Shown here: positions 28-41,902 of the stretch, piece after piece
How positions within the stretch are numbered: the first letter of the stretch is position 1
Layout: the number at the start of each line of letters is the position of its first letter
Sequence record: NC_042084.1
Source: Escherichia phage VB_EcoS-Golestan
Length of the DNA: 44,829 nt
Reading direction: 5' to 3' (one strand)
The notes under the pieces: generated by a model
Seen by the model: only the letters and a program-made list of their open reading frames with translations
Told to the model about the DNA's origin: nothing
The model's database searches: none
Translations under genes and position numbers: made by a program

Positions 28-1251
28 ATGCATTGCAAGTTTCCGGCATTCGTAGCTGGCTTCGGTACGGGTAAATCCGAAGTTATGTGCAACTCTGCAC
101 TACTCGACAGCATGGAAGGTGGTAGCGATTCTATCATCGCCATGTATGAGCCGACCTATGACCTGGTGCGCCTCATCCTTGCACCGCGTATGGAAGAAAA
201 GCTCACCGACTGGGGTATCCGGTACAAATACAACAAGTCTGACAACATAATCTATACGTCTTCCGGACAATTTGGGGATTTTGTTCTGCGTACACTTGAT
301 AATCCAGCAAGAATCGTTGGCTACGAATCGTTTCGTGCGAAAATCGACGAGTTGGACACCCTTAACATGGAGCACGCCGAGCACGCGTGGAACAAAGTCA
401 TCGCCCGTAACCGCCAGTTGCCGCGGACATATAAACCTATTACACCGAAACCTGCTAATACCGTTTCCGTGTTCACTACCCCGGAAGGATTCCGTTTCGT
501 ACATGACCGCTGGGTAGTCAAAAAGAATCCAGGCTACGAGATGATTCAGGCGTCCACCCTGTCTAACCCGTTCCTGCCAGAAGATTATGTGCAGTCGTTA
601 CGCGACACATACCCAGGTCAGTTGATTGACGCCTACATCGACGGCAAGTTCGTAAACCTCACGTCCGGAACGGTATACTATGCTTACGACCGCAGGAAAA
701 ACAGCAGTCGCGAAACAATCAATCCCGGCGAGACTCTGTATATTGGGCAGGACTTTAACGTAGGTCACATGGCGAGCACGGTTTACGTGCAACGCGGTAA
801 GGTCTGGCACGCTGTTGCCGAGTTGGTTGATATGTTCGATACGCCTGACGTAGTGCGGGCCATAACTGAGCGATGGAAAAGTAAGGGCCACTATATCGTT
901 ATGTACCCGGACGCCAGCGGCAAAAACCGTAAAAGCAACAACGCCAGTACCTCAGACATCGCTCAGTTACAGCAGGCCGGTTTCGAAGTACGCGCCAAAT
1001 CAACAAACCCGCCGGTTAAAGACCGCGTATCAGCAATGAACAAGGCGCTTGAATCTGGTATGGTCATGATTAATGAGCAGGCATGCCCGGTTACGGCGCG
1101 ATGCCTTGAGCAACAGGCTTACGACAAGAACGGCGAACCGGATAAATCGGGTGGTGTGGACCACCAGAACGACGGGACCACATATCCTATCGCGTATGAA
1201 ATGCCGATTCGCAAACCAGTTATTAATGTCCCGGTGACTTTCGCACTTTAA
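28..1251 (+). CDS. Terminase large subunit (ATPase/nuclease); reading frame is open back to nt 1, so the N-terminus is probably truncated by the window edge
   Basis: Walker A-like GFGTGKSE near the start; 407 aa; directly followed by portal and head morphogenesis genes; small terminase gene ends at the right window edge. Confidence 0.8.
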   Translation: MHCKFPAFVAGFGTGKSEVMCNSALLDSMEGGSDSIIAMYEPTYDLVRLILAPRMEEKLTDWGIRYKYNKSDNIIYTSSGQFGDFVLRTLDNPARIVGYESFRAKIDELDTLNMEHAEHAWNKVIARNRQLPRTYKPITPKPANTVSVFTTPEGFRFVHDRWVVKKNPGYEMIQASTLSNPFLPEDYVQSLRDTYPGQLIDAYIDGKFVNLTSGTVYYAYDRRKNSSRETINPGETLYIGQDFNVGHMASTVYVQRGKVWHAVAELVDMFDTPDVVRAITERWKSKGHYIVMYPDASGKNRKSNNASTSDIAQLQQAGFEVRAKSTNPPVKDRVSAMNKALESGMVMINEQACPVTARCLEQQAYDKNGEPDKSGGVDHQNDGTTYPIAYEMPIRKPVINVPVTFAL

Positions 1252-1263
1252 GAGGATTATTCA

Positions 1264-2745
1264 ATGTTAACTATGAACGGTCAGAATCAGGGTGTTAAGA
1301 CAAAACACCGGGAATGGCTGCAGCACTTCAATAAATGGCAGAAGGTTCGCCATGCGCTGGAAGGCGACCTTATTCGCTATCTGCGCAACGTTGGGAAGAA
1401 TGAGCCGGACCCGACCTACGCGGCACAGCGCCAGGAAGAATACGAGAACGGCGCTATCTGTTACAACTTCACCAAGAGAACGCTGGCAGGGATGACGGGG
1501 TCGGTGATGCGTAAAGACCCTGAGCAAATTATCCCGCATGAACTGGAATACCTGTTGCACAACGCTGACGGTTCAGGCGTCGGGCTGTGGCAGCACGCGC
1601 AGGATACGTTAATGGAGATTAACTCGATAGGACGTGGTGGGTTGCTGGTTGACGCCCCGGAGACTGCTGCCGCAACGGCAGCTGAACAGAACGCAGGGTT
1701 ATTAAACCCGGTCATCGCATTCTACACCGCAGAGAACATCATCAACTGGCGACTGACCCGCGTCGGTTCTGTTAACCGTGTGACAATGGTCGTGTTGCGT
1801 GAAGTGTGGGAATACTCAGAACCTGGAGCAGAGTTCGAAACTAAGTTCGGTGAACAGTACCGCGTCCTTGACCTGATTGATGGTCGCTACCGCCAGCGCA
1901 TTTACCGTTTCGACGCCGAGGGCGGCGCTCAGGGCGAAGTAATCGAAATCTTCCCGGAACTCGGCGAACAGTTACGCGGCAAAATCCCGTTCACGTTCAT
2001 TGGTGCAAGCAACAACGATGCAACCATTGACGATGCACCTTTGCTGCCGTTGGCTGAGCTTAATATTGGGCATTTCCGCAACAGTGCAGACAATGAGGAG
2101 TCCAGCTTCGTCGTAGGCCAGCCTACTCTGTTCATCGCCCCCGGTGAGAACATGAGCATGGAACAGTGGAAAGAGGCCAACCCACACGGCGTGCGCATGG
2201 GGTCGCGTTCAGGCCATAACATTGGTTACGGCGGCAATGCGTTTCTGGTTCAGGCAGGAGAGAACAACCTCGCCAAGCAGAACATGCTGGATAAAGAGAA
2301 TCAGGCCATCCAGATTGGTGCGCAGCTTATCACCCCTACCCAGCAAATCACCGCTGAATCGGCACGGCTGCAACGCGGCGCGGATACGTCCGTTATGGCG
2401 ACAATCGCACGTAACGTAAGCATGGCATATACCGATGCGTTGCGCTGGGTGGCTGCGATGCTAGGGTTGCGTGAAGGTACAGAGGTTGAGTTCAAGCTGA
2501 ATATGGAGTTCTTCCTGCAACCAATGACCGCTCAGGACCGCACCCAGTGGATGGCGGATATTAACGCTGGCCTGTTACCGGCTACAGCTTACTATGCGGC
2601 ATTGCGTAAGGCGGGGGTAACTGACTGGACAGACGAGGACATTCAGAACGCTATCGAGGATGCGCCGCTGCCGTTAGGTGCTGTTACTCAGGTGGCGGGG
2701 GAGATTCCGCAGTCGGCGCAGCAACAGGACACCACTCAGCCGTAA
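1264..2745 (+). CDS. Portal protein
   Basis: 493 aa ORF immediately after large terminase; RBS AAGAGG upstream; acidic C-terminal tail; conserved gene order terminase-portal-MuF. Confidence 0.7.
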   Translation: MLTMNGQNQGVKTKHREWLQHFNKWQKVRHALEGDLIRYLRNVGKNEPDPTYAAQRQEEYENGAICYNFTKRTLAGMTGSVMRKDPEQIIPHELEYLLHNADGSGVGLWQHAQDTLMEINSIGRGGLLVDAPETAAATAAEQNAGLLNPVIAFYTAENIINWRLTRVGSVNRVTMVVLREVWEYSEPGAEFETKFGEQYRVLDLIDGRYRQRIYRFDAEGGAQGEVIEIFPELGEQLRGKIPFTFIGASNNDATIDDAPLLPLAELNIGHFRNSADNEESSFVVGQPTLFIAPGENMSMEQWKEANPHGVRMGSRSGHNIGYGGNAFLVQAGENNLAKQNMLDKENQAIQIGAQLITPTQQITAESARLQRGADTSVMATIARNVSMAYTDALRWVAAMLGLREGTEVEFKLNMEFFLQPMTAQDRTQWMADINAGLLPATAYYAALRKAGVTDWTDEDIQNAIEDAPLPLGAVTQVAGEIPQSAQQQDTTQP

Positions 2746-2755
2746 GTTCACATAT

Positions 2756-2778
2756 AGCCCCGAAAGGGGCTTTCTTAT
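2756..2778 (+). terminator. Stem-loop (AGCCCC-GAAA-GGGGCT) plus T-rich tail between portal and head morphogenesis genes; probable attenuator
   Basis: GC-rich hairpin followed by TTTCTT, read directly from sequence. Confidence 0.4.
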
Positions 2779-2781
2779 AGT

Positions 2782-3858
2782 ATGCTATTAACTTTAGTAC
2801 CACAGGGTTTAACTATGAGCTTACTTACATCCCTCATCAGCCATCAGATATGGCTGCAACGCACCGCATCCGGTGAGGTGAAAGACCTCACACCGTTCAT
2901 TCAGGAGATGCGGGATGAAATCAAACGGCAGGTGCTGTTATTCGGCGACGACGGGCGAAGCACTGCGCGGCTGAATAAACTGTTACGGGACCTTGAAGAA
3001 GCACTGACAGGGATTACAGGTGACTGGCAAACAAAGCTGACAGAAGACCTCAAGGAACTGGCGGCATATGAGGCTGAGTGGAACGTAAAGACACTGACCG
3101 CCAACGTAGCTGCGGAATTTGTTACACCTACCGCTGAACAGGTGTGGGCTGCTGCCGAGTTTCAACCGTTATCGTTGAGCGACAAGCCTGTTGACTTCAC
3201 TAAGCTGATGTCAGGTTGGGGTGAAACCGAAGTCGCGCGCCTGGTAACGGGTGTTAAGATGGGCTTTGTTCAGGGTAAGACAACACGGCAGATTGTTACA
3301 GAAGTAGTCGGTAAAGGCGGGCTGGCTGACGTATCAGAGAAATACGCCGCTACCGTAATCCGCACTGCGCTGTCTCACGTGTCCAACGAAGCCCGCAATG
3401 AAACATACCGCCAGAACGACGATATCATCGAGAAGTACGAATGGGTGTCAACGCTGGACAGCCGTACCAGTACGATTTGCAGAGCCAGGGACGGAATGAC
3501 GTGGGAAATCGGTAAAGGTCCGATGCCGCCAGCGCATCCGAATTGTCGAAGCACCACGGCTCCGGTAATCAGTTCAGAGTTCGACTTCCTCGATAAAGGC
3601 GCAAAACGGGCGGCTAAGGGCGCTGACGGCGGCACTCAGGTAAGCGCGGACACAACATATTACGAGTTCCTTAAACAACAACCGGCATGGTTCGTGGATG
3701 AAGCACTCGGGCCGACCCGCGGTAAGATTTTCCGCAACAGCGGTATATCGCCGGAAGAGTTTCGCGTAATATCTGTAGATGGTTTCGGGAATCCGCTCAC
3801 GCTTAAGCAGATGGCGGAACTCGATAAACGTGTTGCTGATTATCTGAAAGGGGGATAA
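2782..3858 (+). CDS. Head morphogenesis protein (Mu F / SPP1 gp7-like minor head protein); start may be the ATG at 2814
   Basis: 358 aa; C-terminal PPAHPNCRST resembles the HPNCRC hallmark of MuF-like proteins (from memory); position after portal. Confidence 0.7.
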   Translation: MLLTLVPQGLTMSLLTSLISHQIWLQRTASGEVKDLTPFIQEMRDEIKRQVLLFGDDGRSTARLNKLLRDLEEALTGITGDWQTKLTEDLKELAAYEAEWNVKTLTANVAAEFVTPTAEQVWAAAEFQPLSLSDKPVDFTKLMSGWGETEVARLVTGVKMGFVQGKTTRQIVTEVVGKGGLADVSEKYAATVIRTALSHVSNEARNETYRQNDDIIEKYEWVSTLDSRTSTICRARDGMTWEIGKGPMPPAHPNCRSTTAPVISSEFDFLDKGAKRAAKGADGGTQVSADTTYYEFLKQQPAWFVDEALGPTRGKIFRNSGISPEEFRVISVDGFGNPLTLKQMAELDKRVADYLKGG

Positions 3859-4319
3859 TGATGGGCTTTTTCAAAGTAACTGATGTACCGTCGCGTCGCG
3901 TTGTCCAGTTTGCTCGCGTGTCTGGCTCCGGCGAGAACGTGGTGTCTATTGGGGACGAAAGTGTGCTGGGTACACCAGTAGACGATATGCCGTTTGCGGA
4001 TAAAACCGGTATTGCGCTACCCGCGGCAGGGATGCTTTACGAGATTCCGTATCTGGCGGACGCAGGCGATGTGTATCTCTCTGTACAACCGAAAGACACA
4101 GAACTGACAGACGGCAGCGCGACTATCACTGTCGAAGTTAAGGCCGGTAAAGCACCATACGCGCTGACCTGGTACAAAGACGGTAAGGAAGTGGTAAACG
4201 CCCCTGCAGAGGCTCTGTCTCTGACGGTTAACGCGGTGGGTGAATACTTCGTTAAAGTTACCGATGCCGATGGCGTAGAGGCCTTCAGTAAAGCGGCGAA
4301 GGTTATTAAGCCTGAATGA
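3858..4319 (+). CDS. Ig-like domain protein (probable virion surface/decoration protein)
   Basis: 153 aa; ATGA overlap with upstream gene; beta-rich motif LTWYKDGKEV...GEYFVKVTDADG similar to the ORF at 7627-7968. Confidence 0.55.
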   Translation: MMGFFKVTDVPSRRVVQFARVSGSGENVVSIGDESVLGTPVDDMPFADKTGIALPAAGMLYEIPYLADAGDVYLSVQPKDTELTDGSATITVEVKAGKAPYALTWYKDGKEVVNAPAEALSLTVNAVGEYFVKVTDADGVEAFSKAAKVIKPE

Positions 4320-4322
4320 TAA

Positions 4323-4350
4323 GAGGCCCCGAAAGGGGCTTTATTTTTAT
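4323..4350 (+). terminator. Rho-independent terminator
   Basis: AGGCCCC-GAAA-GGGGCT hairpin followed by TTATTTTTAT. Confidence 0.65.
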
Positions 4351-4414
4351 ATGAACATCGCGGTGATAACCGCAGCCGATACCCACAAAACAACATAAAA
4401 CATCACACTATTTG

Positions 4415-4759
4415 TCATTTGCATTTCTCGTCGTATGTTTGTTGTAACTGCGACAGACGATTACCGGCTGTCATCTCGTCCATAGAAGGCCCAGCGCCTG
4501 TGTCCATAAAGAACAGCGGAACAATCAGGAATGCGCCTGTAACACCGAGTACAACGTTAGTACCTATTTGCTTATTAACACGGTGCGTAGCGTTGGCTTG
4601 AGCTTGTTTTGTCGTGGCGATTCTCGATAGTAACTGATTACATGTTGCCGTTGTATCCCCCGCCTGATAAACCTGTAAAGCTGGGTCTGGCAACGACCTT
4701 ACGCAACCACTCAAACAAACGGCTACAACACCCGCTACTGCTAATTTAATATATTTCAT
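4415..4759 (-). CDS. Lipoprotein with C-terminal hydrophobic segment (candidate superinfection-exclusion or membrane moron)
   Basis: 114 aa; signal peptide with lipobox LSGC; hydrophobic stretch VVLGVTGAFLIVPLFFM; sits alone on the opposite strand within the structural region. Confidence 0.55.
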   Translation of the reverse strand: MKYIKLAVAGVVAVCLSGCVRSLPDPALQVYQAGDTTATCNQLLSRIATTKQAQANATHRVNKQIGTNVVLGVTGAFLIVPLFFMDTGAGPSMDEMTAGNRLSQLQQTYDEKCK

Positions 4760-4857
4760 AGTTCACCATTACCCGTGTCAATTTCACCAATACCACTACA
4801 AGCCCAAAGAAACATCACCGCATCAACTGCAATTACTACTGAAATAACGACTAACAT
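4756..4857 (-). CDS. Small hydrophobic peptide (33 aa) translationally coupled to the lipoprotein
   Basis: Hand-translated MLVVISVVIAVDAVMFLWACSGIGEIDTGNGEL; RBS GAGGAGG 6 nt upstream; stop overlaps lipoprotein ATG (ATGA). Confidence 0.3.
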   Translation of the reverse strand: MLVVISVVIAVDAVMFLWACSGIGEIDTGNGEL

Positions 4858-4884
4858 GACGGCCTCCTCGTTTCGATGTAATGA

Positions 4885-4913
4885 ATAGTACCCTATTATA
4901 TTGGTGTGTGCAA
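4885..4913 (-). promoter_or_regulatory. Family-1 promoter copy A (TTGCAC-N17-TACTAT) containing inverted repeat AATAG-N4-CTATT (4884-4897)
   Basis: About 35 bp near-identical to copies at 14121-14149, 37911-37939 and 39113-39141; lies just upstream of the lipoprotein cassette. Confidence 0.5.
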
Positions 4914-4979
4914 ACTATTTATTTACGTATTCCAGTTATTCCACTCAATTGTAAATGTTGGAATAAACTATTCGAATAG

Positions 4980-5008
4980 TTGACTTTTCACTAAAAATGT
5001 GCTAAGCT
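4980..5008 (+). promoter_or_regulatory. Sigma70-type promoter TTGACT-N17-TAAGCT with extended -10 TG; its -35 overlaps the perfect palindrome ACTATTCGAATAGT (4967-4980)
   Basis: Near-identical promoter at 37602-37630; both followed by the same transcribed leader. Confidence 0.6.
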
Positions 5009-5011
5009 CCA

Positions 5012-5063
5012 CCTGAGCTTGTGAAGTATGAACAAGCGACCGCGGCGCGGGCAGGTAACGGAG
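5012..5063 (+). other. Conserved promoter-proximal leader element, copy 1 (candidate cis-acting RNA, pause/antitermination site or 5' end of a small RNA)
   Basis: 38-nt block CCTGAGCTTGTGAAGTATGAACAAGCGACCGCGGCGCG identical to 37634-37671; contains hairpin GCTTGT-N9-ACAAGC. Confidence 0.5.
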
Positions 5064-5189
5064 CGGGACGTAAGGTCCTGAGTGTAGTTACGCTGACGCG
5101 TTCGGAAGGGCCATACTCTATTGCTTGTGTAAAAAGTAACGGGTTTACTGAGATTACGCCGTTTCTATGTTTAAATGATAAGGACTAGC

Positions 5190-5216
5190 GCCCCGCTTTA
5201 AGGCGGGGCTTTACTT
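5190..5216 (+). terminator. Terminator-like hairpin about 200 nt downstream of the 4980 promoter and upstream of the spanin genes
   Basis: GCCCCGC-TTTAAG-GCGGGGC followed by TTTACTTATC (imperfect U-tract). Confidence 0.4.
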
Positions 5217-5233
5217 ATCGAGAAAGGGGAAAC

Positions 5234-5620
5234 ATGAATCTTAAAGCAACTGTCGTAGCAGGAGCATGTTTCATCATCCTGGCTTACGCCCACGGCATTT
5301 ACCAGTATCGCAGCGGCTGGAGCGAAGGCCGGGCGAATCTCGTTTCGCAGCAACAGCAGAAAGCGCAGGCTGAGTTAGCGAAGAAAACACAACGGCAGCA
5401 GCAGGACGAATCAAAGGCCGCCGCCGCCGACAACGAAGGCAAGACGAAATCAGAGGTGATTACCCGTGAAGTCGTTAAATACATTAAAACGCCAGGTCGC
5501 AGCGTGTGCACTTTTGACCCTGAGCGCGTGCAGCTCAAGTCCCGCGCCGTCGCCAACGCCAATTCCATCCCCGGATACGACGATGATGCAGCCGCCGTGC
5601 AAACTGGCGCAGCCAAGTAG
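5234..5620 (+). CDS. i-spanin (Rz-like inner-membrane spanin)
   Basis: 128 aa; N-terminal TM helix, Gln/Ala-rich coiled-coil periplasmic region; o-spanin-like lipoprotein ORF overlaps in another frame. Confidence 0.55.
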   Translation: MNLKATVVAGACFIILAYAHGIYQYRSGWSEGRANLVSQQQQKAQAELAKKTQRQQQDESKAAAADNEGKTKSEVITREVVKYIKTPGRSVCTFDPERVQLKSRAVANANSIPGYDDDAAAVQTGAAK

Positions 5621-5729
5621 CGACGCTGATGAGGATTTGGCCGTCGACGTTCAGAATGCTGAATGCGTACGGCAACTGAGACTGAAAGTGTTCATGTTGC
5701 AGGATTACGTGAGGAATATTCTGGAATAG
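5466..5729 (+). CDS. o-spanin (Rz1-like outer-membrane lipoprotein), overlapping architecture, GTG start
   Basis: 87 aa; lipobox LSAC, proline-rich mature region (SPAPSPTPIPSP); begins inside and extends beyond the i-spanin ORF; RBS AGAGGTGA. Confidence 0.6.
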   Translation: MKSLNTLKRQVAACALLTLSACSSSPAPSPTPIPSPDTTMMQPPCKLAQPSSDADEDLAVDVQNAECVRQLRLKVFMLQDYVRNILE

Positions 5730-5811
5730 TTGCCTTGCATGTTGGAATAATTTATTCTTGACATGTAAATCCGGGTGGCCCGGATTCCAACGTCCAGGGG
5801 ACATACTGACT

Positions 5812-6513
5812 ATGAATCGTTTTTTACGTTATCCGTTCCAGGAAGAAGCTGGAGCAGAAGATAAAGCTGGTGGCGGTGACGCTCCTAAAATGTTCACCGC
5901 TGAAGAAGTTCAGGCGCTGATTGAGAAAGAAGTTGCCGGGCTTAAGGCCAATCAGGAAGCATTGCTGGCGGAGAAGAAAGAAGCCGCCCGTAAAGCAAAA
6001 GAGGCCGAAGAAGAACGGCAGCGTGCGCACCAGGAGGCGTTAAAGGCCGCCGGTAAGATGGACGAGTTTGAAAAGACGATTCGTAGCCAGTATGACCCGG
6101 TGTTAGCCGAGAAAGATGGCCGCATCTCCAAAATGGCAGAGCGCATCCTCGGCAGCGAACGTAAAGCGGTGCTAGGCTCTTTCGCGGGTGACTTTATTAC
6201 CCCGGAAGCAGTGGACATCCTTGCGCCGTTCGTTAAGACTGAGTTCGAAGGTGATGATGTGGTTACTAAGTTTGTCGGCGCAGACGGTAACGTAATCACG
6301 ACTGACCCGGAACAGTTCCGCAAATACCTGCGTGAACACAAAGCGTTTTCGCATTTGATTAAAGCAAATGCAGCTTCCGGCGGCGGGGCTTCCGGTGGCA
6401 AAGGCGGCGGGGCCGCACCAGCGTTTAAAGACATGAGTGAAGCAGAGCGTTTAGCCCTGTATAAATCGAACCCTGCCGAATTTGAACGGCAACTTAAAGC
6501 CCTGAGGAAATAA
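5812..6513 (+). CDS. Scaffolding protein (probable); start taken at ATG 5812 rather than ORF-track 5758
   Basis: Charged, alpha-helical, coiled-coil-like sequence with Gly-rich tail; directly upstream of the major capsid gene. Confidence 0.55.
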   Translation: MNRFLRYPFQEEAGAEDKAGGGDAPKMFTAEEVQALIEKEVAGLKANQEALLAEKKEAARKAKEAEEERQRAHQEALKAAGKMDEFEKTIRSQYDPVLAEKDGRISKMAERILGSERKAVLGSFAGDFITPEAVDILAPFVKTEFEGDDVVTKFVGADGNVITTDPEQFRKYLREHKAFSHLIKANAASGGGASGGKGGGAAPAFKDMSEAERLALYKSNPAEFERQLKALRK

Positions 6514-6515
6514 TA

Positions 6516-7565
6516 ATGGCAATTACCACTATCGGCGATATCGTAACTGGCAACATCCCGGTCCTGGCGTCTTATATGACCGAGGACCCGGTAGAAAAAA
6601 CCGCGTTCTTCCAGTCTGGTATTCTCACCCCGACCCCATACGCCGCCGAGATTGCCCGCGGCCCGTCCAACGTCGCTAATATTCCTTTCTGGAAAGCGAT
6701 TGATACCTCTATCGAGCCGAACTACTCGAACGACGTATACCAGGACATCGCCACCCCGCGTAACGTGCAGACCGGCGAGATGATGGCGCGCGTTGCGTAC
6801 CTGAACGAAGGTTTCGGTCAGGCGGATTTGACCGTTGAACTGACCAGCCAGAACCCGCTGCAATCCGTAGCGTCACGTCTGGATAACTTCTGGCAGCGTC
6901 AGGCACAACGCCGTCTGATTGCTACCGCGCTCGGGCTGTACAATGACAACGTAGCCGCTACCGACGCATACCACGAGCAGAAGGACATGGTAATCGACGT
7001 GTCTGCTACTCTGGGCTTCGATGCGGGCGCGTTCATCGACGCTACCCAGACTATGGGCGATGCTCTGATGGGCAACGGCGGTGAAGTGCTGGGGGCTATC
7101 GCGATGCATAGCTTCGTTTATGCGCAGGCACGTAAGCAGCAGCTTATCGACTTCATCCGTGACGCGGACAACAACACCATGTTCGCCACCTACCAGGGCT
7201 ACCGCGTGATTGTTGACGACAGCATGACCGTAGTCGGCACTGGCCCGACCCGTAAGTTCATCTCCATCATCTTCGGCAACGGCGCTATCGGTTACGGTGA
7301 AGGTTCTCCGTCCAACCCGCTGGAATACGAGCGCGAAGCGTCCCGCGGCAACGGCGGCGGCGTTGAAACCCTGTGGACCCGTAAGACCTGGTTGCTACAT
7401 CCGTTTGGTTACAGCTTCACCAGTGCAGTAATCACTGGCAACGGCACCGAGACTACCCCGCGCTCTGCTTCCTGGCAGGACCTGGCGAACGCCTCCAACT
7501 GGAACCGTGTGGTTGAGCGTAAGCATGTACCGATTGCCTTCCTGGTAACTGGTGTCGGTGCCTAA
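6516..7565 (+). CDS. Major capsid protein
   Basis: 349 aa; RBS AGGAAA; follows scaffold, followed by strong terminator; typical size and position. Confidence 0.75.
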   Translation: MAITTIGDIVTGNIPVLASYMTEDPVEKTAFFQSGILTPTPYAAEIARGPSNVANIPFWKAIDTSIEPNYSNDVYQDIATPRNVQTGEMMARVAYLNEGFGQADLTVELTSQNPLQSVASRLDNFWQRQAQRRLIATALGLYNDNVAATDAYHEQKDMVIDVSATLGFDAGAFIDATQTMGDALMGNGGEVLGAIAMHSFVYAQARKQQLIDFIRDADNNTMFATYQGYRVIVDDSMTVVGTGPTRKFISIIFGNGAIGYGEGSPSNPLEYEREASRGNGGGVETLWTRKTWLLHPFGYSFTSAVITGNGTETTPRSASWQDLANASNWNRVVERKHVPIAFLVTGVGA

Positions 7566-7582
7566 GGTTAAGCTATAATCGA

Positions 7583-7609
7583 GAGGGACTTCGGTCCCTC
7601 TTTTCATTT
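7583..7609 (+). terminator. Rho-independent terminator/attenuator after the major capsid gene
   Basis: GAGGGAC-TTCG-GTCCCTC hairpin followed by TTTTCATTT. Confidence 0.55.
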
Positions 7610-7626
7610 ACTAAGAGGATTCCTAA

Positions 7627-7968
7627 ATGGCAGACGTATTGAAGCGACGCATCACCGGCGTCTCCGCTGACGCCCCGGGGGCCAAGATTGACATGGAGAC
7701 TATTTCTCCTGCGTCTTTCTCTACGGCACTTAACGCTACTACTGCAGTAACCGCAGGTGAAACTATGACGCTGACAGTCGTAGTAGCTGGCGGTCTTGAG
7801 CCATATTCTTACCAGTGGTATAAGAATAACAACGCTATCGCCGGGGCAAACGCTGCTACCTACGCTAAAGCGTCAACCACTACCGCCGATTCCGGCACGT
7901 ATAAAGTGGTTGTTCACGATGTGTATGGTAATATTATCTCCAGCAGCACCGCAGCAACTGTGTCTTAA
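7627..7968 (+). CDS. Ig-like domain protein (capsid decoration candidate)
   Basis: 113 aa; motif YSYQWYKNNNAI...SGTYKVVVHDVYG typical of Ig-like/Big domains; RBS AAGAGGA; paralogous to 3858-4319. Confidence 0.55.
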   Translation: MADVLKRRITGVSADAPGAKIDMETISPASFSTALNATTAVTAGETMTLTVVVAGGLEPYSYQWYKNNNAIAGANAATYAKASTTTADSGTYKVVVHDVYGNIISSSTAATVS

Positions 7969-7972
7969 TACA

Positions 7973-7990
7973 ACGGCCCTTCGGGGCCGT
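7973..7990 (+). terminator. GC-rich stem-loop (ACGGCCC-TTCG-GGGCCGT) without clear U-tract; RNA-stabilising hairpin or weak terminator
   Basis: Read directly from sequence. Confidence 0.3.
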
Positions 7991-8004
7991 AATAAGGAAA
8001 GGTC

Positions 8005-8184
8005 ATGGCAGATAATTATGTAATCCGCGAAAAGTACACCCACGTTGATGTTGTTGACGGTCAGGTGATGCCTGTTCGCGGTGCGGTAGAAGCGGAAGAA
8101 CTGGTTGCAACACAACCGGACAACGAAGAAGCGCACAACAACGGTGGTGGTACTAAGCGACGTCGCCGTAAGTCAGAGGAATAA
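8005..8184 (+). CDS. Small hypothetical protein (59 aa) with basic C-terminus
   Basis: Hand-translated MADNYVIREKYTHVDVV...; RBS AAGGAAAGG; below the ORF-track length cutoff. Confidence 0.3.
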   Translation: MADNYVIREKYTHVDVVDGQVMPVRGAVEAEELVATQPDNEEAHNNGGGTKRRRRKSEE

Positions 8185-8187
8185 TTT

Positions 8188-8700
8188 ATGCCGCTAATCG
8201 TGGAAGATGGGTCGATAGTACCTAACGCTGACAGTTACGTTAGTCTGGCTGACGCCCGCGCGTTAGCGGCTAATTATGGCCTGGAGCTACCGGAAGACGA
8301 TACTGCCACCGAAGTAGCCTTGCGCAACGGCGCTACTTATGTCGGGCTTGCAGAACCGCAGATGTGCGGCCGCCGTGTGTCCGCCGAGCAGTCCCTGGCG
8401 TACCCACGTACGGGAACAACACTAAACGGCTTCACCGTAGCTGATAATGTTATCCCACCGCAGTTAATCCGGGCGCAGGTAATCGCCGCTGTTACGTATG
8501 GAGCGGGCACTGATGTTCGGGCTAACTCCGATGGACGTTCCGTGCAGACCGAGCGTGTAGAGGGTGCGGTAACAGTTACCTACTTCAACAACGGCAACAG
8601 CGGGGCCACAACCGCGATCACCGCCGCTGACGACGCCTTACGCCCGTTACTGTGTGGTGGTCTTAACAACGGCTTCTCATTTAATGTGTACCGGGGTTAA
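8188..8700 (+). CDS. Head-tail connector / head completion protein (position-based)
   Basis: 170 aa; tight gene packing within the capsid-to-tail connector block. Confidence 0.45.
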   Translation: MPLIVEDGSIVPNADSYVSLADARALAANYGLELPEDDTATEVALRNGATYVGLAEPQMCGRRVSAEQSLAYPRTGTTLNGFTVADNVIPPQLIRAQVIAAVTYGAGTDVRANSDGRSVQTERVEGAVTVTYFNNGNSGATTAITAADDALRPLLCGGLNNGFSFNVYRG

Positions 8701-8702
8701 AA

Positions 8703-9317
8703 ATGGCGAAGACTAAATCAGAGATGTTTACTCTTATCGGCGCAAACCTCCCCGATAACACTACCGGGCTTATTACCCCAGCAGCGTTGCGCGAGGTAAT
8801 GACACAGATGGCTGACTCACCTATTTACGCCACTCCAGGTGTTAAAGAGGTTGAAGTTCTCCGTGCCACGTCTACGGTAACCCAAGCGCCTACCGCGGTA
8901 GATACGGCATTGCAGTTAACTTTCGGTGCAGCTCAGGGTAGTGCATCCGACCCGGTAATGATTAATGCTGCGGGGCTGGTTACATTCAACACCGCCGGTA
9001 ACCACGCCGTTCGCATCAAGTTACAGGCAGGCCGCACAGGTGCCAGCGGAACGTCTATCCTGTTATCACGCATTCTTCTGAACGGTGCTCAGTACGGCTC
9101 ACCTGCCGCCACGAAACTGGTAAGCGCGGACACCACAATCCCGATTGAATCTCGCGTTGTTATTAACCCAACAGCAGGCCAGACGTTTGCCGTTCAGATT
9201 ATGCGGGATAGCGTCGGAACTAACTTCGGTGGTGTATACCCGCAAGCGGCTACCGTAACCGCATGGGGTACAGCCCCGTCCGCGTTGCTGGTTATTTCGA
9301 GACTGGAGGCCGCCTGA
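8703..9317 (+). CDS. Structural protein of the connector region (position-based)
   Basis: 204 aa; 2-nt spacing after upstream gene. Confidence 0.4.
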   Translation: MAKTKSEMFTLIGANLPDNTTGLITPAALREVMTQMADSPIYATPGVKEVEVLRATSTVTQAPTAVDTALQLTFGAAQGSASDPVMINAAGLVTFNTAGNHAVRIKLQAGRTGASGTSILLSRILLNGAQYGSPAATKLVSADTTIPIESRVVINPTAGQTFAVQIMRDSVGTNFGGVYPQAATVTAWGTAPSALLVISRLEAA

Positions 9318-9676
9318 TGAGCACCGCTTTCAGTAAACGTATGCAAGGCGTGGGTACACGCCTGCTAACCAAATTCGGCAGCACGGTATCTCTGGTTCGT
9401 GCTGGCTCGAAAGTGTGGGATGAAGTTCTCGGTGAGTACGTCTGGTCTGCGGATGAAGTGTTGCCGTTGAAAGCGGTTCCGGTTCCGGTTAATGCTGGAC
9501 TGGTAAACGGTTCGACGATTCAGGCGGCCGACATGATTGTTAAAGCCGATTACAGCGTCGTTCCGAAGATGGAAGACAAGGTTCAGTTTAGCGGCGCGCA
9601 ATGGTCTATCGTAGCTATCGAGACGAAGATGGTTAACGATGATGTCGTGGCATATTTTATTCAGGTGAGAAAATGA
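9317..9676 (+). CDS. Head-tail joining protein (position-based); start set at ATG 9317
   Basis: TGATGA stop-start overlap with upstream gene; RBS GGAGGC. Confidence 0.45.
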   Translation: MSTAFSKRMQGVGTRLLTKFGSTVSLVRAGSKVWDEVLGEYVWSADEVLPLKAVPVPVNAGLVNGSTIQAADMIVKADYSVVPKMEDKVQFSGAQWSIVAIETKMVNDDVVAYFIQVRK

Positions 9677-10068
9677 GTTTCGCGCTTGATGTCTCTAAGT
9701 TCGTGGAAAAGGCGAAGAAGAACCCTGAGAAGGTGATGCGTCAGGTGTCTATCAAGCTGTTTTCCGCTATTATAAAGGCGAGTCCGGTAGATACTGGTCG
9801 GTTTCGCATGAACTGGATGGCATCTGGCGGTACTCCTGCTTCCGGGATTACGGATGCTACGGATAAATCAGGAAACACAGCAACCGGAAACGCTACAAGT
9901 TTCGTGCTGAAAGCCACCGACTGGCATGAGTTCACGCTGACAAATAACCTGCCGTATGCACAACGGCTGGAGTATGGCTGGTCGCAACAGGCCCCGCAAG
10001 GATTCGTCAGGACTAACGTGTCCCGCTTCCAGCAACTCATTAACGAAGAAGCTAGCAAGGTGAGATGA
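9673..10068 (+). CDS. Tail completion / neck protein (position-based)
   Basis: 131 aa; ATGA overlap; within connector block. Confidence 0.45.
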   Translation: MSFALDVSKFVEKAKKNPEKVMRQVSIKLFSAIIKASPVDTGRFRMNWMASGGTPASGITDATDKSGNTATGNATSFVLKATDWHEFTLTNNLPYAQRLEYGWSQQAPQGFVRTNVSRFQQLINEEASKVR

Positions 10069-14078: not shown

Positions 14079-14120
14079 AACATAACTCCTGATTTGAGAT
14101 AACATCGTCGGTGTAAGTGA

Positions 14121-14149
14121 ATAGTACGCTATTATATTGGGGTGTGCAA
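14121..14149 (-). promoter_or_regulatory. Family-1 promoter copy B (TTGCAC-N17-TACTAT) with inverted repeat AATAG-N4-CTATT (14120-14133)
   Basis: Near-identical to copies A, F and H; upstream of the accessory cassette. Confidence 0.5.
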
Positions 14150-22239: not shown

Positions 22240-24225
22240 ATGTCAAGCGGATGCGGTGACGTTTTAAGCCTGGCGGATTTACAGACCGCCAAGAAACATC
22301 AGATTTTCGAGGCCGAGGTTATCACTGGCAAATCCGGCGGTGTAGCTACGGGTGCAGACATTGATTACGCAACAAATAAGGTTACCGGGCAGACGCAGAA
22401 GACGCTTCCTGCCGTGTTGCGCGACGCGGGTTTTTCTCCGGTGTCATGGGATTTCTCCACAGGCGGCACGTTAACCGTTAACGACCGGGACAAGGTGGTG
22501 TATGACCCTGTTAGCAAAACATGGTACTCGTACGCAGGTACGTTACCAGTTGTTGTCCCTGCATCGTTTAATCCAGTCGGTAACGCTAACTGGAAGCCGC
22601 AGACAGACCCAAATTTGCGTAATGATTTGGCGTCAAGTACCGCCGGTTTGGGGGCTTCACTGGTGTCTTTTTCCAACGGTAACACCGTTGAAACATTATC
22701 TGACGCGGACGGTGCCAAGAACATAGGCAGCGGCGAAAGGAGTTTGCTTGCACGTAACAATGATATTAAGCATTCAGGAGACTTCTCTACCCTGCAAGCT
22801 GCAGTAGATGCATCGTTACAGAAAAATGACTTACTTATTTCCCCTGGTGAATATACTGAAAAAGTTACTATTGGTAGCGCACAGTTAAAAGGCGTTGGCG
22901 GGGCTGTAGTACTAAAAACACCAGCAGACTTTACAAACACTGTTCAGGTTAATTTATCGACGCCTCATTGGCAATTCCGCCATAGTGGCGGTTTTGCTAT
23001 AGATGGTTCTGGTACAACCGGGGCCGTAGGTATTAGTTTTGACCCGTCAGACCAATATTCCGGACGTCATAATTTTAGTGATTTATACATACACAACATC
23101 AACAAGGCAATTCAGAAGCCTTCCGGGAACATCGGTAATACATGGAGAAATATTGGGGTATCTACGTGTGATTGGGGGTATTACGCGATTAGTGGCTCAG
23201 AGATGCATTGCGGGGCCGATACCCTCTACAATATCCACTTCGACGGCATCTCCGCCTATGCCGTCTACCTAAACGGCACTGTCGATAACGGCGGGATAGG
23301 CGGATGGTGGCTTAAAGACTCCATTATTGAGGCTTCCGGAGGCGGCGGGATATATTTAAAAAGCAAATCAGGTGACTGCCCTATATCTCCATGCGGGGTA
23401 TCCAATGTATGGACGGAAGCGATTGCAACATCATCGGCTGTTCAGGTAGACGGCGTGGCGCAAAAACCGCGAGTTCTCAAGTTGGTAGACACCGCGATAT
23501 TCTTTGCTGAGTATTCTTATCTCAATAACATCGAGCTATCCAACTCCAACTTAGTAACTTATGGTTGCCGTTTTGACAACGCCGATGGTAATCAGGATAT
23601 TGTAGTGGATGCACAAAGCACCATCGTAGCCCACGACGTGTATTTAAACGGCAGTTCTGGAAAGGACGTTATTGTAGAGTCTGTCGCGTCGCAATCCGCA
23701 ACGGTAGCCACTACAAACTTGTCTCTGCGAGGAAATTTAACAAGGGGACGAGTGTTTAATACGCCGACGGGGAATAAGTTAAAAGCTATCACATTTGACT
23801 CAGGTAGCCATAATTTTTCTGGTAGCGGTACCGTTAACGGTTCGACTGTATCTGACGGACTTCACGCCGCTACATGTACCGAATTTTCATTCCCTGGGTC
23901 CGGTTTATATGAAATGGTAGCGTCAAGAACGACACTTACATCCGGTAGATGGTACGTGTGGGGCGTCAACTCTCGCCTCCAATCAGGAACAGCAGATGTG
24001 AGTATAACGTCAGGTATTACTATGGGTAGCGTTTATACTAAGTCTGGTGAGTGGATTAGCACATTTGGGGTGGGTAAAGCTTCCGCTAACGGTACTGTAA
24101 GTCTGTACGTCTCTACTGCGGGAGGTTCAGGTGCTGTTATCAGATTTAGCGACTTCTTCATCGCTGAGTTTACGACGCAGGCTCAGGCTTTAGCTTTCGC
24201 TAACTCCAGAATGTCGTTGGCTTAA
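22240..24225 (+). CDS. Tailspike / receptor-binding protein with beta-helix depolymerase-like body
   Basis: 661 aa; last structural gene; Gly/Asn/Ser-rich repetitive beta strands (e.g. GGWWLKDSIIEASGGGGIYLKSKSG). Confidence 0.6.
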   Translation: MSSGCGDVLSLADLQTAKKHQIFEAEVITGKSGGVATGADIDYATNKVTGQTQKTLPAVLRDAGFSPVSWDFSTGGTLTVNDRDKVVYDPVSKTWYSYAGTLPVVVPASFNPVGNANWKPQTDPNLRNDLASSTAGLGASLVSFSNGNTVETLSDADGAKNIGSGERSLLARNNDIKHSGDFSTLQAAVDASLQKNDLLISPGEYTEKVTIGSAQLKGVGGAVVLKTPADFTNTVQVNLSTPHWQFRHSGGFAIDGSGTTGAVGISFDPSDQYSGRHNFSDLYIHNINKAIQKPSGNIGNTWRNIGVSTCDWGYYAISGSEMHCGADTLYNIHFDGISAYAVYLNGTVDNGGIGGWWLKDSIIEASGGGGIYLKSKSGDCPISPCGVSNVWTEAIATSSAVQVDGVAQKPRVLKLVDTAIFFAEYSYLNNIELSNSNLVTYGCRFDNADGNQDIVVDAQSTIVAHDVYLNGSSGKDVIVESVASQSATVATTNLSLRGNLTRGRVFNTPTGNKLKAITFDSGSHNFSGSGTVNGSTVSDGLHAATCTEFSFPGSGLYEMVASRTTLTSGRWYVWGVNSRLQSGTADVSITSGITMGSVYTKSGEWISTFGVGKASANGTVSLYVSTAGGSGAVIRFSDFFIAEFTTQAQALAFANSRMSLA

Positions 24226-24254
24226 AACTAAGGCCCCAAACGGGGCCTTTTCTC
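24226..24254. terminator. Bidirectional rho-independent terminator between tailspike and the convergent replication operon
   Basis: AAGGCCCC-AAAC-GGGGCCTT flanked by an A-run and a T-run. Confidence 0.6.
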
Positions 24255-24391
24255 TACTCTTCTGATAACTTCTCCAGTACAAACGCCAGTTGCGCATTAG
24301 CGGCGTCTCTTTGCTGGCGTAATCGTAGAACCTCTTCTTCAAGTTCCTTGATACGTTTTTGTAATGCCGGAATCGGGGCTATGATATTCAT
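24254..24391 (-). CDS. Small coiled-coil protein (46 aa)
   Basis: Hand-translated MNIIAPIPALQKRIKELEEEVLRLRQQRDAANAQ...; ATGA overlap with the upstream Toprim gene stop. Confidence 0.25.
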   Translation of the reverse strand: MNIIAPIPALQKRIKELEEEVLRLRQQRDAANAQLAFVLEKLSEE

Positions 24392-24903
24392 CTGGTAAAT
24401 TTCCTCGCAAGATACGTTATTTCTTCTTCACAAAGTTCATCGAGGTCGTTAGATACAAATCCTCTGGAGAATGTTCTGCTAAATTTTAAACCAGCTTTAT
24501 CATTATCCCCAGCGCACACCCAATCATACGGCAGAAGTGACATTTGCCGCCGTAGGTCAGTTGGTATATTCGACCCAAGTGCGCTTACGGCATTGAACCC
24601 GCAATTCATCAAAGCAACAGCTTTAAATATGCTTTCGGTAACAAATACTGTCCCACTTTCAGGAAGGTACTCCAACCCCCATAAACACGGCCTTGTTGTT
24701 CGGGTAAAGTACCGCGCGTCTTTAGGGTTTTTACAGTTCTTTTCAGCATGTGGCTTGTAATGCTGGTATCCTCGTAGCCTACCGTCAAAACCCCACAAGT
24801 AGAATGTAGCAACGCCAGGGGCTAAGACTACCTGGAGACGGTCTGCGTCAAAACCTCGTGACAGCAGATGCGCCTTAAGTAGTAACTCCTCGCCATCCAT
24901 CAT
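24388..24903 (-). CDS. Toprim-domain protein (DnaG-type primase catalytic-core-like)
   Basis: 171 aa; VTESIF (conserved Glu) and GDNDKAG (DxD) Toprim-like motifs. Confidence 0.45.
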   Translation of the reverse strand: MMDGEELLLKAHLLSRGFDADRLQVVLAPGVATFYLWGFDGRLRGYQHYKPHAEKNCKNPKDARYFTRTTRPCLWGLEYLPESGTVFVTESIFKAVALMNCGFNAVSALGSNIPTDLRRQMSLLPYDWVCAGDNDKAGLKFSRTFSRGFVSNDLDELCEEEITYLARKFTR

Positions 24904-27246: not shown

Positions 27247-27434
27247 TTTGCCACCAGAACTAACTCTTTACGCCCGAACGCCGTAACGTTACCGGTTACA
27301 TCTTCGATAACCAGTTTACCGTTCGACTCGACGTACACCGTATCAACGGCAACAGGCCGACGGGTCTTAACGTTGAAAATCATGTCGCCAGGTACGATGT
27401 CACGTGCTGGTTTGCGGTCATATTCGTGTTTCAT
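27243..27434 (-). CDS. Hypothetical protein (63 aa)
   Basis: First ORF downstream of family-2 promoter C; ATGA overlap with the methyltransferase gene. Confidence 0.4.
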   Translation of the reverse strand: MKHEYDRKPARDIVPGDMIFNVKTRRPVAVDTVYVESNGKLVIEDVTGNVTAFGRKELVLVAK

Positions 27435-27464
27435 TTCTCAATTCCTTATATTGTTGGTGTAGGA

Positions 27465-27752: not shown

Positions 27753-27831
27753 CCACACACCCCTCACGTTTCGTATGCGCAATACCACAGCGCGGACAGA
27801 TCCGGCGGTCTTCTTCGTAGAACCAGTAAAT

Positions 27832-27963
27832 TTTCATTCCAGCACCCACAGATAAATTGTTACTAACATACCTAATACGGCAACCATCATGCCGTATTGA
27901 CCCTCGTGACAGTAGACACCGGCGGCGAATCCCGCCAGTACCGCAATAATCAGTTTACTTGGC
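27832..27963 (-). CDS. Small hydrophobic peptide (43 aa) overlapping the 3' end of the polymerase gene
   Basis: Hand-translated MPSKLIIAVLAGFAAGVYCHEGQYGMMVAVLGMLVTIYLWVLE; no clear RBS. Confidence 0.2.
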
Positions 27964-30482: not shown

Positions 30483-30497
30483 TATTTTCGACCCTTA

Positions 30498-30522: not shown

Positions 30523-30541
30523 AGTTAAATTGATTCAGATA

Positions 30542-31171: not shown

Positions 31172-31184
31172 TTGATTTCTCGCT

Positions 31185-37601: not shown

Positions 37602-37630
37602 TTGACTTTTACTAAAAAATATGGTAAGCT
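37602..37630 (+). promoter_or_regulatory. Sigma70-type promoter TTGACT-N17-TAAGCT with extended -10 TG (paralog of 4980-5008)
   Basis: Near-identical to the 4980 promoter; followed by the same leader. Confidence 0.6.
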
Positions 37631-37633
37631 CAG

Positions 37634-37690
37634 CCTGAGCTTGTGAAGTATGAACAAGCGACCGCGGCGCGCGGCAGGCGAAACGAGCAC
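37634..37690 (+). other. Conserved promoter-proximal leader element, copy 2
   Basis: 38 nt identical to 5012-5049, then similar but diverged sequence. Confidence 0.5.
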
Positions 37691-37799
37691 GTGTAGCGTG
37701 TGGAGTGAGGCTCGCTAGCGCGTTTGGGAGGCCCAAAGTCTATTGTAAATCCCACCTAAATATCTAAGTTACTGATTTGCCGTAGGTCAGAACCGCAAG

Positions 37800-39141: not shown

Positions 39142-39157
39142 TCATTTACACCAACGA

Positions 39158-40865: not shown

Positions 40866-41174
40866 TTGGATAAATTTACTGAAACAGTGACAGGCTGGCT
40901 TCTCGCTGCCGCACTGGTCGGTGGATTGGTCGGACTAAGACAACATAAAAAGTCTATATCCGGGCCGATTGACGGACTGGTATTTCTTCTCACCGGCTTC
41001 GCGTGTGCCATTTTCGGTGCACCTCTTGCTGCTCAATGGTTCGGTATTACCGGTGAGCGCGAGATAGCTGGCCTCGGATTCATCATTGCCATTCTCTGGA
41101 TGCCTATCTATTCCCGCCTTTCTGGCATCGTATCGGGCGGCGATATTGCCCGCCCAGGAGGACCGCATGACTGA
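40866..41174 (+). CDS. Holin (three predicted TM segments), TTG start
   Basis: 102 aa; RBS GGAGGA 7 nt upstream; hydrophobic segments; upstream of endolysin. Confidence 0.6.
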   Translation: MDKFTETVTGWLLAAALVGGLVGLRQHKKSISGPIDGLVFLLTGFACAIFGAPLAAQWFGITGEREIAGLGFIIAILWMPIYSRLSGIVSGGDIARPGGPHD

Positions 41175-41439
41175 GCTATTCTGGTTTGTCGTAATGCTTT
41201 CAATTGGCGCTTCGTCCCTGTTCAACGTGTATAACGAACACGTGGACGACGGGCTGTTCGGGCGTGTGCTTTATATTCTGACTGCTATTGTCTGCGCCGC
41301 CGGATGTATCCACCTGTTACAGGGCAGCATGTCACCGACGCTGCCTGAGACATTAATCACATTAGTTGCGCTGCGTCAGATTCGTCAGGCGTGGCTGTCG
41401 TACGGAGGGCATAAGCGTGTCTCGAAACATTTCAGATAA
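41167..41439 (+). CDS. Second lysis-associated membrane protein (holin/antiholin-like)
   Basis: Two or three hydrophobic segments; overlaps the holin stop and the endolysin start. Confidence 0.45.
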   Translation: MTELFWFVVMLSIGASSLFNVYNEHVDDGLFGRVLYILTAIVCAAGCIHLLQGSMSPTLPETLITLVALRQIRQAWLSYGGHKRVSKHFR

Positions 41440-41902
41440 TGGGTTGCATTTCACCGCAGCATTTGAGGGATTCCGCGGAACCGCGTATCGCGCTACACCG
41501 AACGAGAAGTACCTTACGATTGGGTATGGTCACTACGGGCCGGACGTTAAGGCGGGGCAGACCATCACACCGGGACAAGGACTCCTGTTACTGAATCGTG
41601 ATATGGCTAAGGCTGTAGCCGCAGTTGATGCGGCAGCACACCATTCGCTTACACAGGCACAGTTCGACGCAGTGTGCGACCTGGTGTATAACGCTGGTGC
41701 CGGTGTGATTGCGGCTACTACTGGCACAGGTAAGGCACTGCGTTCTGGTGACGTCACGACTCTGCGGGCTAAGCTGGCGCTGTTCATCAACCAGAACGGC
41801 AAACCGATACTTGGACTGCGTCGTCGTACCGCCGGTCGTCTGGCGCTGTTCGACGGTAAACCGTGGCAGGAGGCGGAGGCTATCGGGAGGGCTGTTAGAT
41901 GA
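41417..41902 (+). CDS. Endolysin, GH24 lysozyme-like; start set at GTG 41417
   Basis: FEGFRGTAYRATPNEKYLTIGYGH matches the GH24 lysozyme N-terminal pattern; RBS GGAGGG before GTG 41417. Confidence 0.75.
   Translation: MSRNISDNGLHFTAAFEGFRGTAYRATPNEKYLTIGYGHYGPDVKAGQTITPGQGLLLLNRDMAKAVAAVDAAAHHSLTQAQFDAVCDLVYNAGAGVIAATTGTGKALRSGDVTTLRAKLALFINQNGKPILGLRRRTAGRLALFDGKPWQEAEAIGRAVR

Follow-up and report, generated by a model that had tools for sequence, protein, structure and literature searches.

The overlapping gene pair at positions 5234-5729 of Escherichia phage VB_EcoS-Golestan (NC_042084.1; the window is this whole analysed stretch of 44,829 nucleotides) very probably encodes an overlapped two-component spanin of the Jersey family, which would act as its lambda counterpart does and be produced late, along with the head proteins, from a fixed slot in the head gene cluster. 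A first-pass annotation had called an overlapping i-spanin/o-spanin pair at this place, and both the open reading frames, with their 155-nt overlap, and matches to PHROG families of Rz-like spanins bear this out:

5234..5620, plus strand: i-spanin, 128 aa, predicted type II inner-membrane protein with an N-terminal helix and periplasmic Cys92 (called from PHROG and residue features)
5466..5729, plus strand: o-spanin, 87-aa prelipoprotein in the +1 frame, with Cys22, Cys45 and Cys67 (called from PHROG and lipobox)

Both frames lie on the plus strand, offset by +1, and the o-spanin frame begins 232 nt inside the i-spanin gene and runs 109 nt past its end. Residues 1-23 are the sole hydrophobic stretch of the i-spanin (Kyte-Doolittle above 1.6), the other 105 residues being polar or charged, and its cysteines are at positions 12 and 92. 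The o-spanin start was placed at GTG 5466, the most upstream start codon possible, which is preceded six bases before by a strong GAGGTGA ribosome-binding site. The resulting N-terminus reads MKSLNTLKR-QVAACALLTLSA-C22-S23, and the signal, MKSLNTLKRQVAACALLTLSA-C22-S, has a basic N-terminus, a 12-residue hydrophobic core, the lipobox LSAC and Ser rather than Asp at +2; beyond the lipobox, a proline-rich stretch is followed by Cys45 and Cys67. The transmembrane and lipobox check proposed with the original call thus came out in its favour. Judged by the description of two-component spanins in Summer 2007 and Kongari 2018, the pair comprises a small i-spanin that has one transmembrane domain, at the N-terminus, and a C-terminal part presumed to be periplasmic, a small o-spanin with a signal peptide, a lipobox cysteine and a +2 residue other than Asp, an o-spanin gene that overlaps the i-spanin gene, and cysteines in the predicted periplasmic parts (Cys92 of the i-spanin; Cys45 and Cys67 of the o-spanin).

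The i-spanin matched PHROG 2536 ('Rz-like spanin') over its full length at 8.5e-57, and the o-spanin matched PHROG 1267 ('Rz-like spanin') over residues 11-86 at 8.6e-21. Searches of Pfam/NCBIfam, lambda Rz/Rz1 families included, returned no above-threshold family for either protein, and the lambda Rz (PF03245) and Rz1 (PF06085) models were unmatched by the pair at E <=0.1. Matches below the cutoffs were a weak one to DUF2514 (0.017) and, for the o-spanin, one to P2 LysC, an Rz1-like protein (0.0033, 17.6 bits against a cutoff of 27). In view of these Pfam/NCBIfam results, what carries the spanin assignment is the gene architecture together with PHROG families whose own annotation was inferred.

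A 'Jersey' spanin family of 27 phages has been described within the overlapped class (Kongari et al. 2018, BMC Bioinformatics 19:326; PMC6139136). Its listed members include the Kagunaviruses K1G, K1H and K1ind1-3 and the Dhillonviruses HK578 and EK99P-1; the overlap is 155 bp in Jersey itself, and Cys45 and Cys67 of the o-spanin are constant (PMC6139136). The Golestan i-spanin is 65.6% identical to its Jersey homologue over the full length (tblastn), and the pair shares with Jersey the overlapped architecture, the overlap of 155 and identical positions of Cys45 and Cys67. We found no difference of substance from the family, of which the pair is one more member. Homologues of the i-spanin are encoded in 663 phage records (tblastn), and the two genes are conserved together in more than 600 genomes of phages that infect Gram-negative bacteria. 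At 26 related loci lying downstream of the same leader (see below), the full 87-aa o-spanin frame with its lipobox was present in 22 distinct variants, the lipobox being LSAC or LASC; one variant locus (L043) has an o-spanin with a different signal and an overlap of only 14 nt. Experiments on any member of the Jersey spanin family were not found in the literature.

The remaining lysis genes lie elsewhere, and the claim that a holin, a second membrane protein and an endolysin occupy 40866-41902 was confirmed by holin PHROGs and by PF00959:

40866..41174, plus strand: holin-like membrane protein 1, 102 aa, with hydrophobic segments (PHROG 2359 holin, 2.4e-32)
41167..41439, plus strand: holin-like membrane protein 2, 90 aa, with two hydrophobic segments (PHROG 2508 holin, 2e-34)
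41417..41902, plus strand: soluble lysozyme-type endolysin (PF00959, 5.5e-27), likely starting at GTG 41417 after GGAGGG

The two holin-like proteins have two to three hydrophobic segments, and neither matched a Pfam/NCBIfam family above threshold. Read from GTG 41417, the endolysin has no hydrophobic signal-anchor at its N-terminus, and this start agrees with the 162-aa annotation of a relative (fEg-Eco06), in which the gene overlaps holin 2.

The lysis genes are therefore in two places, as had been proposed: 8,160 nt and 16 annotated genes, among them terS, terL, portal and head-morphogenesis genes, separate the endolysin stop from the i-spanin start on the circular map, with the spanins downstream on the same strand. 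The accompanying distance of about 35 kb is correct on the linear map only and is an artefact of map linearisation. The record opens between terS (44295-44819) and terL (28-1251), related records open elsewhere, at many points, and Shashou and Snoke, both relatives, have been predicted to use headful packaging (PMC6776780, PMC6776784). The same opening point, and the other points chosen in relatives, would speak for the lysis genes being truly contiguous and separated purely by the way in which the record was opened, a reading that is left with practically no probability and is refuted by the 8,160 nt and 16 annotated genes that still intervene on the circle. The holin, endolysin and spanin genes do not form a contiguous cassette of the lambda type. 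One practical use of the analysis is the reminder that, where a circularly permuted genome has been linearised, distances read off the map can be misleading.

The placement of the spanins at the head of the structural operon did not hold, with TerL, portal, Mu-F-like head-morphogenesis and Hoc-like genes upstream of them (28-4319). Between these head genes and the spanins are a terminator-like site (4323-4342) and two reverse-strand genes (4415-4857). With the TerL-to-Hoc-like genes upstream, the spanins lie inside the head gene cluster and head only its scaffold-capsid unit, in which an 82-nt gap separates the o-spanin from the scaffold gene:

5812..6513, plus strand: head scaffolding protein, directly downstream of the spanins (PHROG 206 at 5e-56)
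6516..7565, plus strand: major capsid protein (by annotation), followed by a terminator-like site at 7581-7602

One of the reverse-strand genes, just upstream of the spanins (4415-4759), encodes a lipoprotein and is probably an accessory gene. This position varies among relatives and holds reverse-strand genes, a methyltransferase gene in S123 and an HNH endonuclease gene plus a regulator gene in PhiSTP1.

The layout itself recurs in relatives. The genome of fEg-Eco06, a Kagunavirus whose record is opened elsewhere, carries everything from holin to major capsid on one contiguous stretch, in the order holin, holin, endolysin, about ten small genes, terS, terL, portal, minor head protein, Hoc-like, one reverse-strand gene, spanins, scaffold and major capsid. 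The spanins come after the head-morphogenesis/Hoc-like genes and before the scaffold gene in this phage, in the Jerseyviruses Jersey and S123, in the Cornellvirus PhiSTP1 (where the spanin genes barely overlap), in Serratia phage Otaku and, outside Guernseyvirinae, in the Dhillonvirus EK99P-1. Jersey shows the same split, with its holin and lysin genes at 41182-42221 and its spanins at 7501-7996.

In lambda, Rz1 lies entirely within Rz and the two come immediately after R, whereas the Golestan o-spanin outruns the end of the i-spanin and the pair sits 8.2 kb beyond the endolysin, inside the head gene cluster. The two phages are alike in that the holin-endolysin genes of Golestan, as those of lambda, precede the terminase genes on the circular map. 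The lysis genes of T7 are dispersed, with the holin gene 17.5, the lysozyme gene 3.5 and the spanin genes 18.5/18.7, the last between the two terminase genes; the T7 spanins belong to a different protein family from the Golestan pair. The T4 spanins are not near the T4 holin and endolysin either (PMC6139136), and this pair, pseT.3/pseT.2, is likewise unlinked but belongs to another protein family and has a 'separated' rather than overlapped architecture. The genes thus do depart from a contiguous cassette in not being adjacent, as first stated, but the arrangement is not unusual: the slot recurs across Guernseyvirinae and in Dhillonvirus, the spanin family was described by Kongari et al. 2018, and T4 is a textbook example of spanins unlinked to the other lysis genes. 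Separation of the spanins from the other lysis genes was already stated in the paper on the Kagunavirus fBC-Eco01 (PMC9825357). Being common to the lineage and already published, the layout is ordinary, and the finding as first put adds little, concerning a published family and a gene order common to hundreds of sequenced phages.

By analogy with lambda Rz/Rz1, the i-spanin would be anchored in the inner membrane through its N-terminal helix, and the o-spanin would be lipidated at Cys22 and, because its +2 residue is Ser and not Asp, sorted to the outer membrane. The periplasmic domains may then bind each other and give disulfide-linked complexes that span the periplasm, threaded through the peptidoglycan; on removal of the peptidoglycan by holin and endolysin, the complex would disrupt the outer membrane. 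Spanins are inert while the peptidoglycan is intact. Late expression would therefore suffice and linkage to the holin and endolysin genes would be unneeded, which would let a split of the lysis genes persist. Late accumulation of the spanins would be in keeping with their position amid the late genes that are expressed most heavily, and the slot between the head-morphogenesis/Hoc-like and scaffold genes is probably a fixed, ancestral one. It is also conceivable, at a very low probability, that the pair is instead a non-lysis inner-membrane protein and a lipoprotein, for example with a superinfection-exclusion or envelope-modifying role, whose genes overlap by chance. Such a reading can point to the lack of a curated Pfam/NCBIfam spanin model above threshold and to the different lipoprotein gene nearby on the other strand (4415-4759). 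Against it, the pair has all the sequence characters of two-component spanins and is kept in more than 600 genomes, and, going by the annotation, no other spanin candidate was seen by the holin and endolysin genes, the genes after the endolysin being small and labelled hypothetical, NinH or DUF2737.

We next considered how the Jersey-family spanin pair may be transcribed. Several candidate control elements surround it:

4980..5008, plus strand: promoter-like element (the 'left leader promoter'), TTGACT, 17-bp spacing, TG-n-TAAGCT
4961..4973, palindrome with no strand assigned: GAATA-N3-TATTC, upstream of the -35 hexamer and within a 19-nt motif repeated at 5739-5757
5190..5209, plus strand: G+C-rich, terminator-like hairpin with TTTACTT after it; the i-spanin starts 24 nt further on
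5745..5763, plus strand: second palindrome copy plus TTGACA, within the 82 nt that precede the scaffold gene and without a good -10 hexamer

The element at 4980-5008 was kept in 34 of the 34 distinct relatives examined, across all leader variants. A simple sigma-70 scan left it unscored because its -10 hexamer matches at three of six positions, and we accept it as promoter-like only, from its conservation and TG extension. The spanins had been described as lying directly downstream of this promoter; a conserved promoter-like element is indeed there, but a leader of about 200 nt and the hairpin at 5190-5209, which is retained in the centroid fold of the whole leader, intervene. The window has the exact palindrome twice, at 4961 and 5745, a number that no shuffle reached; the palindrome is a possible regulator binding site.

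A terminator scan of the plus strand found no terminator-like site from 5209 to 7581, which makes a joint spanin-scaffold-capsid transcript plausible, and the spanins would then most likely be made with the abundant late head proteins, from the promoter-leader unit starting at 4980. The original proposal that the spanins are transcribed together with scaffold and capsid genes is thus plausible. The second copy of the 19-nt motif with TTGACA before the scaffold gene means that the capsid genes may have a promoter of their own, and this element (5745-5763) together with the hairpin at 5190-5209 means that spanins and capsid need not share a transcript or an expression level. We therefore weighed an arrangement in which the spanins are separately regulated: transcripts from 4980 would mostly stop at 5190-5209, giving an RNA of about 200 nt, with regulated read-through into the spanins, and scaffold and capsid would be transcribed mainly from their own, possibly activator-dependent, promoter at about 5758. 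The hairpin has G-C pairs at seven of eight positions and is followed by a T-run, the leader upstream of it is a structured RNA, and the 19-nt motif with GAATA-N3-TATTC precedes both TTGAC elements, all of which favour this arrangement. It is weakened by the interruption of the T-run (TTTACTT), which is worse in Jersey, and by the lack of a recognisable -10 hexamer at the 5758 element, and we regard it as possible yet clearly the less probable course. In time-course RNA-seq of a Kagunavirus, the lysozyme, Mu-F-like and capsid genes fall into one 'middle' class (PMC12645636); the spanins are unmentioned in that paper.

The leader RNA is of more interest than the spanin layout and is the part of this region worth following up. 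It occurs at two places in the window:

5009..5129, plus strand: leader RNA, left copy, with a small 5' hairpin and then a long irregular hairpin (covariance model, 133 bits)
37602..37751, plus strand: promoter plus leader, second copy, found by BLAST within the window; RNA at 37631-37751 (covariance model, 98 bits)

Identity between 37602-37745 and 4980-5123 is 79%, and the promoter-like element is shared. This second copy stands at the start of the rightward genes that extend as far as the holins and endolysin, and after it come a (CTCA)n repeat and a hairpin (37828-37844). For the region 4928-5233, 177 records show at least 95% identity; against Salmonella phage S123 this region is 97.7% identical, as compared with 72-85% for the spanin, scaffold and capsid genes. 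A degenerate pattern drawn from the conserved leader ends recovered 55 stretches in IMG/VR, some contigs having two; the leader-bearing contigs measure 4.5 to 45 kb, the longest being about one Guernseyvirinae genome.

We collected 34 distinct leader RNAs, which fall into classes differing in their central sequence. When the 20 distinct central domains were folded alone, all 20 shared one shape. The common fold consists of a small 5' hairpin and then a 62-68-nt irregular hairpin closed by CCG-C-GGNGC / GCN'UUCGG, in which one pair of the closing helix covaries between C-G, U-A and A-U, and the apical stem is GGGAC/GUCC, GGUGC/GCAC, CACGUG/CGUGUG, GUGCC/GGCAC or GGGCGU/ACGCCC according to class. 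A GAGUG(U)AG loop is conserved, and there is a GGAAGG...UAUUG tail. When 60 hits, 35 of them distinct, were aligned, 95.1% of cells were paired, against at most 39% with slid partners, and 92 cells showed double-sided changes, against 31 in shuffles, a level reached in 0 of 500 shuffles; this alignment was fitted to a hand-specified structure, and the counts are biased towards that structure. RNAalifold predicted the closing helix only, because MAFFT misaligned the centre of the leader. Folding-energy z-scores were unremarkable for the 121-nt element (-1.3 and -0.9) and -2.8 for the 232-nt leader, and the plus strand of the leader folds much better than the minus strand (-43 versus -30.5 kcal/mol). 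Taken as a whole, the leader RNA is probably a real conserved structure.

A covariance model built from 15 sequences with the hand-specified structure found exactly two copies in the window and one in Jersey. The Jersey left copy had been spotted by eye and was confirmed with the model; BLAST of both Golestan copies against phage Jersey gave no match, and the right-hand control region of Jersey contained no copy. The model found no leader copy in Dhillonvirus, Otaku or Cornellvirus, and the 4227 covariance models of Rfam gave no match at E <=1 across 4300-6000. The leader appears to represent an undescribed family of structured phage RNAs present in Kagunavirus and Jerseyvirus.

As for what the leader does, one idea is that it acts in cis, in the manner of the HK022 put RNAs, and lets host RNA polymerase pass the hairpins that follow. 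Put RNA makes polymerase resistant to terminators without protein factors and needs the zinc-binding domain of the beta' subunit. A put-like cis antiterminator is a reasonable proposal in Golestan, given the succession of promoter, RNA, hairpin and long operon and the lack of a recognised Q- or N-like protein: no such antiterminator was found among the ten small proteins tested, which yielded only two HTH proteins and NinH. The leaders resemble HK022 putL/putR in being two similar structured RNAs of about 70-120 nt just downstream of promoters, with terminators and long operons after each copy. They differ in that put forms two long stems with a triplex, whereas the Golestan leader forms one small and one long hairpin, and no similarity in sequence and structure to putL/putR was detected, the leader covariance model having no match at E <=5 in the HK022 early region 24000-33000, in which the put positions were not pinpointed. 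The leader data would be explained equally well by a small RNA that ends at a terminator or by an attenuating leader, and we consider put-like action unlikely.

If the leader were put-like, a single RNA element would control the two parts of the split lysis genes as well as the head genes, and antitermination would operate in a virulent phage in which no antiterminator protein has been recognised. The broader notion that paired leaders generally coordinate both lysis halves has been weakened, as a second copy is present in only about 40 of 179 records and the leader is absent from Cornellvirus, Otaku and Dhillonvirus; given that count, coordination of the two loci would be at most a sub-lineage feature. 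Whatever its mode of action, the leader is a concrete, testable candidate for driving late transcription in phages without a polymerase of their own.

The analysis also exposes two errors in the reference annotation, which was taken from vB_EcoS_SCS44 (ON001686.1; Kagunavirus, Guernseyvirinae), a genome of 44,829 bases like the window. The window differs from ON001686.1 at 220 single positions, none within 5234-5729, and the 3.2 kb around the spanins are 99.4% identical to it over the full length; the same 3.2-kb region is matched by several hundred related Escherichia and Salmonella phage records. In GenBank (ON001686.1), the endolysin starts late, at 41444 instead of the likely GTG 41417, and the o-spanin is truncated to 5586-5729, a signal-less protein of 47 aa. 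Start codons of o-spanins are very often mis-annotated (Kongari et al. 2018; PMC6139136), and the 87-aa o-spanin is the better call than this 47-aa annotation. PHROG 5672, with its 47 positions, seems to have been built from such truncated o-spanin calls.

The leader RNA that precedes the spanin pair is structured, a fold backed by covariation, and occurs in two copies, of which the right one heads the holin/endolysin operon:

5009-5129, left copy of the structured leader RNA (putative promoter 4980-5008)
37631-37751, right copy of the structured leader RNA (putative promoter 37602-37630)
5104-5129 and 37726-37751, invariant tail, GGRAGG...UAUUG, in the left and right copies, respectively

The leader RNA is present in Kagunavirus and Jerseyvirus, and the left copy retains 97.7% identity between an E. 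coli phage and a Salmonella phage, while the flanking genes of the same pair share only 72-85%. No copy was detected in Cornellvirus, Otaku, Dhillonvirus or the early region of HK022, and the RNA had no match in Rfam. In the right-hand leader, a (CTCA)6-7 tetranucleotide repeat (37803-37828) was also observed directly ahead of a hairpin at 37828-37844.

Judging from its sequence, the invariant tail could combine a candidate ribosome-binding site with the UUG start codon of a tiny open reading frame, which would read UUG-CUU-GUG-UAA in the left copy and UUG-UAA in the right copy, and would extend to six codons in Jersey according to the alignment. Alternatively, the same GGRAGG...UAUUG motif could represent a boxA-like element.

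The region surrounding the left leader also contains a palindrome, GAATA-N3-TATTC, which lies a short distance 5' of TTGAC at two sites, one preceding the spanin leader and the other the scaffold gene; its counterpart in Jersey is GAATACTTTATTC. One of two helix-turn-helix (HTH) proteins encoded in the window may bind this palindrome:

4961-4973 and 5745-5757, palindrome GAATA-N3-TATTC
34222-34437, forward strand, HTH protein
37312-37500, reverse strand, HTH protein

An accessory slot, whose cargo varies among related phages, separates the Hoc-like gene from the spanin leader and is occupied here by two reverse-strand genes:

4415-4759, reverse strand, lipoprotein of 114 aa with lipobox LSGC, Cys19 and a second hydrophobic segment
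4756-4857, reverse strand, hydrophobic peptide of 33 aa

The lipoprotein belongs to PHROG 13472, a family of unknown function. Both genes are driven by one copy of a repeat of about 45 nt (TTGCACAC.CCAA.ATAATAGG.TACTATTCA...), a putative promoter found four times in the window and directly followed on its 3' side by a gene start in every case:

4873-4913 and 14108-14149, reverse strand, promoter-like repeat
37911-37956 and 39113-39158, forward strand, promoter-like repeat

Comparison with the public record of Escherichia phage vB_EcoS_SCS44 (ON001686.1), which is equal in length to the window, revealed 220 single-base differences in clustered patches and no indels; two of these differences fall in the leader (5141 and 5201) and none in the spanin genes. 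This record mis-starts two lysis genes. Its o-spanin is annotated at 5586-5729, yielding a product of 47 aa without a signal sequence, whereas the true start is the GTG at 5466. Its endolysin is annotated at 41444-41902, with a GTG preceded by a good ribosome-binding site located upstream, at 41417.

By gene order, the small gene at 43235-43420, which had no match in Pfam, is the positional counterpart of g016 in the Kagunavirus relative fEg-Eco06, annotated as "RNA polymerase inhibitor, similar to 2LMC_A". 2LMC is presumably T7 Gp2, which would make this an odd gene for a phage without its own polymerase. The minor head homologue of the window (2782-3858) lacks an intein, unlike the fEg-Eco06 protein (7863-9800 in that genome), which is interrupted by one, as has also been reported for phage Snoke.
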